The position numbers and the translations under genes are program-made. Source: Candidatus Borrarchaeum yapensis (lineage in GTDB: Archaea; Asgardarchaeota; Sifarchaeia; Borrarchaeales; Borrarchaeaceae). Taken from it: 32,000 nucleotides of DNA. This document shows, in pieces, positions 8,820-29,771 of the stretch (within the stretch, counting starts at the first letter, position 1; each line of letters starts with the position of its first letter). Below the pieces are notes generated by a model. That model had not been told where the DNA came from. It worked only from the letters and a program-made list of their open reading frames with translations, and did no database searches. The DNA lies in contig JAEOSF010000036.1 in NCBI GenBank assembly GCA_016840515.1, positions 3,959 through 35,958 of the forward strand, given 5' to 3'.

Positions 8820-9017
8820 TACATTTTACAATGGATCGAAATACTCGATAATGCTCAATTTGAAAGTGAAATTAATTTTAAGGTATAACGTAAACTAAAT
8901 CGTTCTTTAACTCTCCTCCTATTTATGATATGATTTGCTAATGTAATTTTTACTTATGTAAAGGGAATTATAACGGCTATCTTTACGTTATTTTGTGGAA
9001 CTGCTCACATTATAACT

Positions 9018-9458
9018 TTAATCCTTACCGATAGTATGTTGACTCGGTACTTGGAGTTTTGAGACTAACGAACTGAGGCTTTCAACATCTTTTGTCAGTC
9101 GACTAAACACTTTTTTCATTTTGAGCCAATGTACTAAATCGGCTTTACAACGCTTTGATTCTAGATGACTTGCCAGTTTTTTTGAAAGTTTTTCTCCTTG
9201 ATCATCGAAGTCTGCTAAGAGTATAATTCGATTATAATGTTCGAGTTGCTCTGCGACTTCAAATATAGGGTCCCCAATATTAACGCAATGAATAGGACCC
9301 CGTATACCAAGTGCACGCAAGGACGCTTTGTCTTTTTTTCCTTCCACAATAATCGGTGTGCCACTGTTTGCGTCAACAATTAAGTCGTGAAGGACATTGT
9401 CCATTTTTTCGGTCCAGTTTTGTGAAGGAAACTGATTAGTTTTCTTTTTTCTTGACAA
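9018..9458 (-). CDS. small Toprim-domain protein (RNase M5-like, COG1658 type)
   Basis: 146 aa with IIVEGKKDKASLRALGI and LLADFDDQGE Toprim motifs. Confidence 0.78.
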   Translation of the reverse strand: MSRKKKTNQFPSQNWTEKMDNVLHDLIVDANSGTPIIVEGKKDKASLRALGIRGPIHCVNIGDPIFEVAEQLEHYNRIILLADFDDQGEKLSKKLASHLESKRCKADLVHWLKMKKVFSRLTKDVESLSSLVSKLQVPSQHTIGKD

Positions 9459-19741: not shown

Positions 19742-19817
19742 GCCGCCGTAGCTCAGTTGGCAGAGCGTTGGACTTGTAATCCAATGGTCGAGGGTTCAAA
19801 TCCCTTCGGCGGCTCCA
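19742..19817 (+). tRNA. tRNA-Thr(UGU), intron-less, CCA encoded
   Basis: Perfect cloverleaf: GCCGCCG UA GCUC AGUUGGCA GAGC G UUGGA CUUGUAA UCCAA UGGUC GAGGG UUCAAAU CCCUU CGGCGGC U CCA. Confidence 0.97.
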
Positions 19818-26210: not shown

Positions 26211-26435
26211 GCCGGGGTGGCTAAGAGTCGATGCATGAGGAAATTGCCCTCACTACATCGATGAGAAGCCTGGTTATAGCGCCGGACACTCTCCGAGCCG
26301 GTTTCATAGAGATTATCCCAAGAAAGCCCTTTCTTGAGACATCCGGAGAGACGTTACACGTTGAGGTAATGTTCTGAAGGTCGCGGGTTCGAATGGATGA
26401 GCGTAACGCTCTTTCCGAAAAGCCCGCCCCCGGCA
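26211..26435 (+). tRNA. tRNA-Met(CAU), elongator-like (Ile2-CAU not excluded), with five putative introns; no encoded CCA
   Basis: Acceptor GCCGGGG/CCCCGGC and A73. D arm GCUA-[53 nt = 10-nt loop + 43-nt insert]-UAGC. Anticodon arm CCGGA-C[16 nt]UCAUA[32 nt]A-UCCGG gives the loop CUCAUAA. Variable loop AG[31 nt]GUC. T arm GCGGG-UUCGAA[28 nt]G-CCCGC. 225 nt minus 150 nt gives 75 nt, with exact bookkeeping. Confidence 0.75.
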
Positions 26436-26486
26436 CTATCCTTAAAGGCTTGAGACACACCCTACGAAATTGATACATCATAATAA

Positions 26487-26657
26487 GCGGGGGTGGCCGA
26501 GCCAGGTCAATTTGCCTATAAGGGTCAGATCATAGGCGCTGGTGTGTGAGGCAACTGCTGCCTTATACTACGAGACTTAAGATCCAGTGACGTAGGTCTA
26601 CGTGGGTTCGAAAAGTTTTGGCGAAAGCCTTTTTCGGAAATCCCATCCCCCGCACCA
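26487..26657 (+). tRNA. tRNA-Leu(UAA), class II, with three putative introns; CCA encoded
   Basis: Acceptor GCGGGGG/CCCCCGC and A73. The D region GGCCGAGCCAGGUCAA[23 nt]AGGCG restores the usual archaeal Leu D arm. Anticodon arm CUGG[32 nt]A-CUUAAGA-UCCAG. Long variable arm UGACGUAGGUCUAC. T arm GUGGG-UUCGAA[28 nt]U-CCCAU. 171 nt minus 83 nt gives 88 nt. Confidence 0.8.
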
Positions 26658-26696
26658 ATCATCTTCTAAAAAAACCCCTAATTTGAATAAAAAAAT

Positions 26697-26830
26697 GCCC
26701 CGATAGCTCAGCTGGTAGAGCGCGACCTTGGTAAGGTCGAGTTATCTTCGGAACTCCCGAAGATAAGATAAGTCGCGGGTTCGAAGGTTTTAAGAGAAAT
26801 CTCTTTCCGAAACACCCGCTCGGGGCTCCA
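26697..26830 (+). tRNA. tRNA-Thr(GGU) with two putative introns; CCA encoded
   Basis: GCCCCGA UA GCUC AGCUGGUA GAGC G CGACC UUGGUAA GGUCG AG[30 nt]GUC GCGGG UUCGAA[28 nt]A CCCGC UCGGGGC U CCA. 134 nt minus 58 nt gives 76 nt. Confidence 0.87.
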
Positions 26831-26939
26831 TTTCCATAATTTTTCACAATCTGTTGATAGAATATTGCGTACTCAACTCTACAGATTCACTAGTATCTGC
26901 ATTTAAAGTAATTAGAATTCAAAAAAGTAAATTAAGGGA

Positions 26940-28064
26940 TTACACAGCAAGATGAAATTCTTCTCTCAACCGCTTTGCTATTGTTTCCACTCTATTCAGT
27001 TTACTTAATCCCCATTGAGTTACTCTGTAGTATTTCTTACGTCCTCTTCGGTAGCGAACGCATTCTGCTAAACCCATTTTGACTAGTCTTCGAAGTGTAC
27101 AAACGATGCAATATTCTTTTAGTTGTGAGAGTCGTCCAAGTTCTTTAATATAGTTTTCTCCTTCTGCTAACGCCTCTAATATCTTTTTCTCGGTTATCCT
27201 GTTATTGTTCACTCGCATCATATCTACTGGATACATTGCTGATAACTCGATTTCTCCTCGGATTAACTTTACCCTCTCTACTAAATTCGTCTTGCGAGGC
27301 ATCAATCCAAATTTTTCATACAGCACTACTTTCGTCAAGTGCTTCGGATTATTGAATCCTATGCTGTTCATCCATCTCTCATAATTCTTGTCTCCATTTA
27401 TCGCCAGAATTAACGTCCCATCGTCACTTTCCCACAACCTCTTAGGAATGACAAACCCTAATCGCCTCAACTGCTCCTGCAACTGTCTCATTAAAGGCTC
27501 ACTAATTGAACTATAGCTCAGAACTGGGTAGGTATGCGCTAATCCGTCTTTACTCTTAAAACTTAGACTTCCATCTCCATCGAATAGTCCTCGCATTAAT
27601 ATACGGAGAATTCTCAGATTTTGTAAAAAATATCTCGGGATTGTAATTGTCTTTTTTTTTCCATAGGGCAGCCCTAGTACTTTATTTTTGAATAATACCA
27701 GCTGTTTAGACTTTTTTTCTACGATAATTGTCCGCTCGCCTCTTACTCCTCTGAAGTAGATTCGTGAAGTGCCTCATAATTGTTTCAATAACGGCGCAAA
27801 GTGAAATATGTAATAGGGAAAATCATCTATGGCATGACCGTGATATTGTACCTTCTTGCTATTGCCTTCATAATTACCCATATGTCCATCACTAATATGT
27901 ATCCCAACATTTTCAGCGAGCTGCTCTGTCACCTCTTCAGGTAACTTCACTGGATGGTAAATTCTGCTTCCTCCAAAGTCTAACTCCCGAGTTGGCAGCG
28001 GAATTCTGCACCTCTGTTCAACTTCTTCTAACTTCTGAGCTCGATTTACCATATTATTCCTCAC
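26940..28064 (-). pseudogene. free-standing double-motif LAGLIDADG homing-endonuclease-like gene with C-terminal winged-helix domain, interrupted by one in-frame TGA (27774-27776)
   Basis: ORFs 27774..28064 and 26940..27596 are in the same frame (27776-27596=180). I translated the 59 intervening codons by hand and found no other stop. Joined length is 374 codons. The motifs VGIHISDGHMG and LFDGDGSLSF lie about 100 aa apart, as in monomeric LAGLIDADG enzymes. The C-terminal LRRLVKMGL..YYRVT looks like a wHTH. Confidence 0.72.
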
Positions 28065-28511
28065 TATCTCGCTTTTCTTGATAAGGGTTTCATAGCGTTC
28101 ATAAGAATTTTAAAATTTGAAATAAGTCTCCTTAGATCTATATATTTTCAATAAAATTTAAGGATATTCATCATTTTTGCCGTTATTCTTATTAAATTTA
28201 CAGAATGTTCATTAGAATTGACAAGAAGTTTCTTAGAAATGACAAAAGGTTCTACTATTTTTGTTAAGGTTACACTCAATCTTGATAGAAAATTCATCGA
28301 ATGATAGGAAAACTACTACAAATTTCGAACTGGTTCCTTCTTTCAAATGTCTAACAAATCAGTTGAATTTTCCCATAATTACTTAGAACAATGATAGAAT
28401 TGGTCAGATAATGAAATAACCGCCTGCAATTGTTATTGCGAATATTATTCCATTTATAAACAAATTAAAATTTCAACTAAGTTCTTTCAATAATGATTGA
28501 GCACCGCAACT

Positions 28512-28537
28512 AATCCGCGATCCTTATATAATTAGAT
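28512..28537 (+). repeat. 26-nt direct repeat copy 1 (AATCCGCGATCCTTATATAATTAGAT), TATA-box-like core
   Basis: 25/26 identical to copy 2, which lies 113 nt downstream. The TTATATAA core resembles an archaeal TATA box. Degenerate similarity extends about 30 nt upstream of both copies. Confidence 0.8.
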
Positions 28538-28583
28538 TCGAAGGTCTGAGTAATTGCTCTGTCCGAAATACCCATCTGGGGCT
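28537..28583 (+). other. orphan tRNA 3' fragment (T-loop + 59/60-type intron + T-stem 3' strand + acceptor 3' strand + U73)
   Basis: UUCGAA[GGUCUGAGUAAUUGCUCUGUCCGAAAU]A-CCCAU-CUGGGGC-U aligns block for block with the 3' part of tRNA-Thr(GGU). No matching T-stem 5' strand (AUGGG) or acceptor 5' strand (GCCCCAG) occurs upstream. Confidence 0.65.
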
Positions 28584-28624
28584 TTATTCAATTTACTTCA
28601 AGTTTTAATAATTTTCCCCAATTA

Positions 28625-28650
28625 AATCCGCGATCCTTATATAATCAGAT
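28625..28650 (+). repeat. 26-nt direct repeat copy 2 (AATCCGCGATCCTTATATAATCAGAT), TATA-box-like core
   Basis: See copy 1. Lies about 225 nt upstream of the CDS at 28875. Confidence 0.8.
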
Positions 28651-28874
28651 CAGTTGTACTGAGCGGTAACTCCTTCAACGTTTCTTTGAATTATAGGTTA
28701 AATATCTTCAATCAAAAAACTAGATAACAAGTAATTGATGAATAAATGTAGTAGAGGGCGTAAAAATTTAATTATACGAAAAATTGAAGTAGAGGCGCAA
28801 AACTTTATTTATTATAGTTCAGTTATTAAGGTGAATAAAATTAGTGGATTTAAGAACGAAATGTTGGTGATTTT

Positions 28875-29771
28875 TTGCAGTTAATTGACGCTTTTCAAGG
28901 ACTTATTAACTCATTAGCGGCCTCAACGGGCTTAGCCGCTGTTATTTTTGAATTAATCTTTGTTGTCGTTATTCTTGTAGTGCTTGTCATTGGAGGATAT
29001 TTTGCAGGAAAATCTGTAGGAGGAGGAAAAGAATCCTCAGCAACTTCTAAACTTCTAATCCCATCTGAAGGATATTCCATAGATGAAAGTATTTCTATAG
29101 ATGAAGTAACTCAAACTCAAGAAACTCTGCAAATACTCGAAGTTGAGAAGACATCAGCAACACAGGCGATTAAAAGTGCAGAAAAAGCCTACAAAAGTAA
29201 AAAAATTAGCCCATCTGCATATCAAAAACTTATGGAACTATATTCTGAACGACTTGAAAAAATCAATTCCGAAATATCACGCCGAACAAGTGTTGTAAAA
29301 GTAGGGACTTTAGAAGCAGAATTCGAACGTGCAAGACAAGAAGCCCTTGTAGAATTGAAAGGAGAACCAGAAGAAGTTACTGAACTAGGTGTTCCAGAAG
29401 CAGGATTAATAGAAGAATCTGAAGTTCTAGAAGGACCTGCAACTCCAGCAGGACCGCCCACAGGTCCCCCTACAGGACCGCCCACAGCACCCCCTACAGG
29501 ACCGCCCACAGCACCCCCTACAGCACCACCTACAGCCCCCCCTACGACTCCACCTGCAGGGCCACCTACAGCACCCCCAACGACTCCACCTGCAGGGCCA
29601 CCTACAGCACCCCCTACAACGACTGAAACTCCCACAGCACCCCCAACGACGCCTCCAGCACCTGGAGAAGATCTTGTTGAAGCAGGAATGGCGACAGTTG
29701 CTTCACTAAGATCAGAAATGTTAAATGAGCTAAGAAGACTCAAAAAATATATGCAGAAACCACCTGCTTAA
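28875..29771 (+). CDS. membrane-anchored coiled-coil protein with Pro/Thr-rich (PPTx) repeat region, TTG start
   Basis: N-terminal TM helix, a predicted coiled-coil middle, then (G/A)PPT(G/A)PPT repeats and a short basic tail. Confidence 0.65.
   Translation: MQLIDAFQGLINSLAASTGLAAVIFELIFVVVILVVLVIGGYFAGKSVGGGKESSATSKLLIPSEGYSIDESISIDEVTQTQETLQILEVEKTSATQAIKSAEKAYKSKKISPSAYQKLMELYSERLEKINSEISRRTSVVKVGTLEAEFERARQEALVELKGEPEEVTELGVPEAGLIEESEVLEGPATPAGPPTGPPTGPPTAPPTGPPTAPPTAPPTAPPTTPPAGPPTAPPTTPPAGPPTAPPTTTETPTAPPTTPPAPGEDLVEAGMATVASLRSEMLNELRRLKKYMQKPPA
29455..29650 (+). repeat. in-frame 12-nt-periodic tandem repeats encoding PPTx, including a 36-nt unit duplicated at 29544-29579 / 29580-29615
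   Basis: Direct reading shows the two 36-nt units differ at one position. The antisense ORF 29222..29743 is a repeat artefact. Confidence 0.8.

Follow-up and report, generated by a model that had tools for sequence, protein, structure and literature searches.

Gene ends stranded beside homing-endonuclease ORFs are already known from the mobile endonuclease ORFs (mORFs) of fungal mitochondria. A mORF inserts in the 3' part of atp6, atp9, cox2 or nad3 and brings with it a replacement C-terminus, as described for atp6 of Allomyces macrogynus and for Glomus sp., and the stranded copy of the gene end matches the sequence found in close relatives (PMC3630166). A second system concerns tRNA genes: in the tRNA cluster of T-even phages, the endonuclease SegB cuts within tRNA-coding DNA, and the ensuing repair co-converts the flanks and can yield segmental duplications with short-homology joints (PMC13096335). 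For Asgard archaea, a 2026 preprint on tRNA introns leaves open the route by which these introns arrive and does not mention homing endonucleases (10.64898/2026.10.13.758758). In the literature we found no report of stranded ends in tRNA genes or in archaea, none of such ends as carriers of T-loop introns, and none linking LAGLIDADG genes to Asgard tRNA genes. Here we describe an orphan tRNA 3' piece in the genome of Candidatus Borrarchaeum yapensis that is probably a spare tRNA-Thr(GGU) 3' end, made when a free-standing LAGLIDADG cassette entered the gene at its T arm.

The stretch of DNA that was analysed (the window; 32,000 nt, G000:C95:3959-35958) belongs to a 100%-complete assembly of 3.63 Mb in 124 contigs with 37% G+C (G000), and was compared with three genomes of the same genus, G001, G002 and G003. 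The tRNA genes of G000 are rich in protein-spliced introns, many of them of the T-loop type with the form GTTCRAA-[intron]-CYGAAA, and this packing with introns means that ARAGORN and Rfam detect only part of the tRNA set. An intact tRNA-Thr(GGU) gene lies on the plus strand at 26697-26830, as indicated by an Rfam tRNA match of 30.6 bits, a stem-matching scan and orthologues in G001, G002 and G003. It contains a variable-region intron and a 59/60 T-loop intron, has the acceptor strands GCCCCGA/TCGGGGC and U73, and encodes its CCA.

The orphan piece occupies 28537-28583 on the same strand and reads TTCGAA + GGTCTGAGTAATTGCTCTGTCCGAAA + T + ACCCAT/CTGGGGC/T, that is, T54-A59, a 59/60-type intron, CCCAU, CUGGGGC and U73, where it stops (28583) with no encoded CCA. 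Neither ARAGORN nor Rfam gives any call within 28300-28950. When aligned column by column, its T-loop, 59/60 intron and 3' exon correspond to those of tRNA-Thr(GGU) of G000 and of three relatives. An earlier sequence-only reading had described a Thr-like tRNA 3' portion with a 59/60-type intron, ending in CCCAU-CUGGGGC-U and related to the tRNA-Thr(GGU) 3' end, and the sequence and the alignment agree with it on each of these points. Since the working tRNA-Thr(GGU) of G001 uses the same acceptor strand, CTGGGGC, the piece is best read as an allele of tRNA-Thr(GGU) and not of tRNA-Thr(CGU).

Comparison with relatives places the piece at the right-hand edge of an insert. A search with positions 28400-28720 in 40 relatives split the query, G003 and G002 matching only from 28556 on and G001 only over 28410-28542. 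In G003 and G002, one uninterrupted piece of DNA carries tRNA-Leu, tRNA-Thr(GGU), about 45 nt of trailer and spacer, a single copy of a 26-mer that occurs twice in G000, and the same downstream DNA. Window positions 26420-26832 and 28556-29000 align to adjacent stretches of these two genomes that overlap by 33 nt, and positions 1501-1533 of the G003 locus (L005) align twice, to 26800-26832 and to 28556-28588. From 28556 on, the window is collinear with the tRNA-Thr(GGU) 3' end and downstream flank of G002 and G003, including the resident tRNA trailer and spacer at 28584-28624 (plus strand; TTATTCAATTTACTTCAA...), which stand directly behind tRNA-Thr in both.

The extra DNA in G000 amounts to 1757 nt, measured between two T54 positions, one in the intact tRNA-Thr(GGU) at 26780 and the other in the orphan at 28537. 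It lies between two copies of the segment that runs from T54 to the tRNA 3' end: the left copy (26780-26830, plus strand), delimited by BLAST and alignment, completes the working gene, and the right copy is stranded before the resident trailer, spacer and 26-mer. The left arm of the insert (26831-26939) has by BLAST no counterpart in cassette-free relatives or in other cassettes. It is followed by the endonuclease gene on the minus strand and by a conserved region at 28089-28355. Farther right, at 28410-28511, comes an extension of the right arm that is found by sequence comparison at Thr loci only and is 79% identical to the endonuclease-free Thr locus of G001. BLAST detected no second copy of the insert in the G000 genome.

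Foreign DNA that has integrated into a tRNA gene is classically recognised by flanking direct repeats of a tRNA 3' part. The insert might accordingly be the remnant of an integrase-type element, a virus or a plasmid, that used the tRNA-Thr 3' part as its attachment site, with the orphan as attR and the endonuclease as a passenger. Like the products of such integration, the insert is a foreign segment flanked by a tRNA 3' repeat, here of about 51 nt, with the tRNA gene kept intact. However, this repeat is imperfect: its two copies are identical at 39/51 positions (76%), with TTCGAAGGT and CCGAAA as the only identical runs, and do not resemble a near-identical attL/attR core. The 1.76 kb of the insert contain no integrase or other element gene; the LAGLIDADG-wHTH ORF is their only gene, and the ORFs of at least 20 aa in 28065-28700 are junk. 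Moreover, the mobile core shared by all four loci at which this gene was found consists only of the endonuclease gene and its upstream region, and viral contigs carry only remote relatives of the endonuclease family. An integrase-type origin is thus very unlikely. One explanation offered from the sequence alone, a decayed tRNA or att-type remnant tied to the neighbouring LAGLIDADG gene, agrees with these comparative data, the vehicle being a homing-endonuclease cassette that lacks an integrase.

The LAGLIDADG-wHTH homing-endonuclease gene (26940-28064, minus strand), defined from its translation, Pfam and homologues, is a 374-codon frame with a single TGA at 27774-27776. It matches Pfam LAGLIDADG_3 (PF14528) at 1.7e-7, above the curated cut-off, and the N-terminal 96 aa of the frame are 85% identical to the protein P0002. 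The TGA takes the place of a Trp of invariant type that is present in 16 full-length homologues (consensus PLLKxLWG), so that the gene reads as a fresh pseudogene made by one TGG-to-TGA change; such an inactivation would place the element in the decay phase of the homing cycle. A large protein collection contains 39 homologues, mostly of 360-370 aa, with PF14528 and in some cases also PF01978. Among 301 sampled genomes of the phylum, the family is seen in this genus only. The region upstream of the gene (28089-28355) is conserved in every cassette, with 66-72% identity in an all-against-all BLAST of the cassette right sides, and presumably represents the endonuclease promoter and leader.

The same layout recurs at other tRNA genes, always in the order of an intact tRNA, a unique left arm, an antisense endonuclease gene, about 270 nt of conserved upstream sequence, a short unique right arm and an orphan tRNA 3' piece. 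Four loci show it, together with one remnant without the endonuclease gene; apart from the Thr locus, the cassettes are those at tRNA-Leu in G001 (G001:C36), at tRNA-Arg(CCU) in G002 (G002:C48) and at tRNA-Arg(UCU) in a metagenome contig (L019). Only the endonuclease gene and the sequence corresponding to window 28089-28355 are homologous among the cassettes, the arms being locus-specific. Two of these sites are empty in G000. At the Leu site, C47 16556-17254 and 17255-17762 map to L016 602-1299 and 3146-3649, which flank a 1.85-kb insert; at the Arg(CCU) site, the DNA of C72 up to 69401 and from 69380 on flanks the 1.6-kb insert of G002.

The tRNA ends on the two sides of these cassettes differ in their T-loop introns. 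At the G001 Leu locus the working 3' end has CCA at its terminus and no intron, whereas the stranded piece agrees with the cassette-free orthologue in its T-loop intron and ACTC trailer, and by this match is clearly the old resident end. The tRNA-Arg(UCU) locus shows the reverse, with an intron in the working end and none in the stranded one. At tRNA-Arg(CCU) the working end has the intron and the stranded piece has decayed, and at the Thr locus the two ends carry two different introns. The left edge of the orphan also varies, lying before the T-stem (Leu), at T54 (Thr) or near the 3' strand of the T-stem (Arg(CCU)), so that no single cleavage site is defined.

Two details of individual cassettes may be added. 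About 110 nt separate the orphan tRNA-Arg(CCU) piece of G002:C48 (L015:700-870, minus strand) from a TTCGAA motif ahead of it; the piece has either decayed strongly or acquired an insertion of unusual length between T-loop and 3' strand. The Leu cassette contains, just upstream of the endonuclease gene and overlapping it by a few bases, an extra 121-aa ORF (L016:2577-2942; G001:C36, minus strand) that is absent from the other cassettes.

The fungal mORFs suggest, by analogy, how such loci would form. The endonuclease would cut, in or close to the T arm, a tRNA allele that lacks the cassette, and a cassette-bearing allele would serve as the template for repair. The tract copied from it would include a replacement 3' end, with the result that the tRNA stays functional, and the old 3' end would persist downstream as dead DNA. 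The loss phase of the homing cycle would account for the Thr locus of G001, where the right arm, the junction between 26-mer and T-loop and the orphan piece are kept and neither tblastn nor blastn finds any trace of an endonuclease remnant. A wider proposal, to which we give somewhat less than even confidence, is that the cassette hops among the tRNA genes of Borrarchaeota-like Asgard archaea, cutting the T arm, installing 3' ends and adding, removing or exchanging 59/60 introns.

The orphan piece is joined on its left to the first of two copies of the 26-mer. Copy 1 (28512-28537, plus strand) contains the TATA-like box TTATATAA at 28524-28531, and copy 2 lies at 28625-28650 on the same strand. 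A repeat search pairs 28512-28550 with 28625-28663, at a distance of 113 nt. Over the first 21 nt there is no difference, and over the first 26 there is one (T/C; 25/26), which confirms the direct repeat as it was first noticed. It had also been noticed that copy 1 abuts a piece starting at T54. The start at T54 holds, but the two do not simply abut, since T54 doubles as the final T of the 26-mer, an overlap of 1 nt. Within the window CGATCCTTATATAAT occurs only at the two repeat sites (0.15 expected by chance), and the genome-wide search for other copies of the 26-mer that the sequence-only reading called for ran over all 3.63 Mb of the assembly and gave no third copy of the 21-mer below 3 mismatches. 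The sole other 26-mer-like site in the genome, L003:1501-1521 (G000:C27:27680-27700; AATGAGCGATCCTTATATATT), has 3 mismatches and is followed by about 360 nt free of ORFs, with no Rfam match and no similarity to the region behind copy 2.

In G002 and G003, the single 26-mer stands about 45 nt past tRNA-Thr, before a conserved ORF-free leader and a membrane-protein ORF. The TTATATAA box and this conserved place, before an ORF-free leader that is 92-94% conserved, suggest that the 26-mer is a promoter; in G000, the membrane-protein ORF behind copy 2 starts at 28875 and encodes 298 aa. Since trailer, spacer and 26-mer behind the orphan piece all belong to the resident locus, the native, promoter-like element is copy 2, and copy 1 represents the final 26 nt of the insert. 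The same junction of 26-mer and T-loop is present in G001. A promoter duplication, another of the explanations first considered, is therefore real as a duplication and yet no separate event, being part of the same insertion. The leader also has, at 28738-28805, a direct repeat (GTAGTAGAGGGCGTAAAA / GAAGTAGAGGCGCAAAAC) that G002 and G003 share, a possible regulator site; this part of the leader contains a 48-codon ORF as well, which is not conserved in G003.

The duplicated 26-mer raises the question of whether the duplication came before the cassette. On that account, the locus first acquired a 113-nt tandem duplication that spans T54 through the 26-mer, and the cassette landed in the first spacer only afterwards, which would make the orphan a duplication scar of which the cassette is not the direct cause. 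The order of the parts (tRNA 1-53, unit 1, unit 2) fits this exactly, and the homology of the repeat ends precisely at the joint. The G001 locus has the joint without any endonuclease remnant, so that the duplication could predate the cassette, and tandem segmental duplication driven by a free-standing endonuclease has a documented precedent in SegB, at the tRNA loci of phages (PMC13096335). However, beyond the 26-31-mer the sequence before copy 1 is not significantly similar to the fragment and spacer (z = 1.5). Likewise, no significant homology was found between the two 26-mer regions beyond about 31 nt, nor between the left arm and the resident downstream DNA. In addition, orphan 3' pieces adjoin the same endonuclease gene at three other loci, which ties the pieces to the cassette. 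Taken together, these observations make a prior tandem duplication unlikely as the source of the orphan piece.

An origin of the orphan through the cassette itself has to accommodate the fact that the Thr cassettes alone end in a copy of downstream host DNA, no such duplication being found beside the others. This, together with the differing left edges of the orphans, counts against the cassette as the cause. Copy 1 of G001 agrees with the G000-type 26-mer at 21/25 positions (counted by eye) and with the presumed, diverged resident copy of G001 at 16/25, and this closer match to the G000 type than to its own presumed resident copy suggests that copy 1 travels together with the right arm. With low confidence, one may speculate that in the founding event, repair synthesis from a donor in which the cassette stood between tRNA-Thr and the 26-mer ran through the donor 26-mer. 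The end so produced would then have been fused to the unresected break end at T54, with a 1-nt (T) overlap. As the source of the second 26-mer, this course and an earlier tandem duplication agree equally well with the exact order in which the parts stand.

The two Thr 3' ends can also be compared between lineages. The 3' exon of the working gene, CCCGC-TCGGGGC, is identical to that of G002 and G003, and the exon of the orphan piece differs from it at 5 of about 21 positions. In G001 the orphan Thr piece, which is about 60% identical to that of G000, has TCGGGGC plus CCA and resembles a G003-type end. The acceptor strand of each orphan thus matches the working gene of the other lineage, in both directions, which argues that 3' ends have been exchanged between the lineages. 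The signs of residency at the Thr locus diverge: the flank points to the orphan as the resident end, and the exon sequence points away from it, since it is the working exon and not the orphan that matches G002 and G003, a further observation that counts against the cassette origin. If the orphan is nonetheless the resident end, the 53-nt 5' half of the tRNA must have been co-converted, which would be unremarkable for homing tracts.

Intron similarity does not discriminate between the two ends as a test of residency, all pairs being 55-65% identical. The flank identities to G002 and G003 show no clear mosaic of co-conversion; against G003, tRNA-Leu is 98.9% identical and tRNA-Thr 89.7%. The neighbouring tRNA-Leu, including its introns (window 26480-26660, compared with L005 and L006), combines this high identity to G003 with 83% to G002 (extra intron), and the DNA around it is 86-93% identical to both. 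This may mark a tract of recombination or co-conversion.

Split and permuted tRNA genes have been described in Nanoarchaeum, Caldivirga, Staphylothermus and Thermofilum, and split or permuted tRNAs broken at 59/60 are known from other archaea. The orphan piece could, in the same manner, have a function: with the TATA of copy 1 as its promoter, it would yield the 3' half of a split (trans-spliced) tRNA-Thr or some other small RNA. It resembles such genes in two respects, the break at the position of an intron and an upstream promoter-like box of its own, which is TATA-like and precedes the intron tail by about 25 nt; the 26-mer, too, is better conserved between its copies (25/26) than the surroundings are. 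Unlike split tRNA genes, however, the piece has no partner and no complementary leader or trailer in the 100%-complete assembly. Pattern scans of all 124 contigs found no GCCCCAG followed by a D-arm and an ATGGG T-stem, extending to the whole genome the lack of a 5' partner (GCCCCAG..AUGGG) that had been reported for the window. The complement of the would-be leader, searched assembly-wide with up to 4 mismatches, gives many matches, none of which lies behind a tRNA T arm, and the only exact match is the locus itself.

Nor is a Thr isoacceptor missing that a split gene would have to supply. All of them are intact in G000, namely Thr(UGU) at 19742-19817, Thr(GGU) at 26697-26830 and, outside the window, Thr(CGU) at about 8977-9093 on the minus strand of contig C15 (G000:C15). 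This last gene, a complete copy of which the sequence-only reading had proposed to look for, is called by ARAGORN after excision of a 41-nt intron. The intron lies right after position 9, at the boundary of acceptor stem and D stem, and the Rfam match to the gene is limited to model positions 6-65. The insert-free relatives G002 and G003 do not have the orphan piece at all, and the G001 counterpart is, at about 60% identity, quite different. Folding of the piece is no better than that of shuffled sequence (z = -1.0) and yields only a small intron hairpin. A transcribed 3' piece of a split tRNA, ranked last among the original explanations, is contradicted by the intact tRNA-Thr(CGU), the lack of a 5' partner and the lack of any further 26-mer, and we regard a function for the piece as highly improbable. 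If the TATA of copy 1 fired, the RNA would be short, consisting of the intron tail and the 3' exon and ending in the T-runs of the old tRNA terminator, and it is expected to be functionless.

On its own, then, the orphan piece is dead DNA, and its value is that of a dated scar. The scar points to a LAGLIDADG cassette that enters tRNA genes and replaces their 3' ends in this Asgard genus, exchanging alleles between lineages, and the swap of 3' ends also alters the T-loop intron content of the host tRNA. If the hopping of the cassette among tRNA genes is true, it would constitute a concrete, DNA-level route for the gain and loss of archaeal tRNA introns. For annotators, it follows that tRNA-like 3' fragments preceded by a TATA in intron-rich archaea are not necessarily split tRNAs.

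Like the cassette, SegB is encoded by a free-standing endonuclease gene beside tRNA genes. It differs in being a GIY-YIG enzyme of a phage genome, in that its duplications are whole tRNA-plus-segB units under selection, and in that no replacement and stranding of 3' ends is described for it (PMC13096335). The arrangement at the Thr locus resembles that of the fungal mORFs. In both, a LAGLIDADG (or, in mORFs, GIY-YIG) gene lies between a replacement 3' end, by which the host gene stays whole, and a stranded old 3' end, close relatives have empty sites, and the two copies of the end differ, which in mORFs is read as transfer between lineages (PMC3630166). Unlike the mORFs, the cassettes sit in tRNA genes of an archaeal (Asgard) chromosome. 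Their endonuclease gene runs antisense and is predicted to be transcribed separately instead of being fused in frame, and the swapped segment may have a protein-spliced T-loop intron or none. Moreover, the copy that differs from close relatives at the Thr locus is the stranded one and not the working one.
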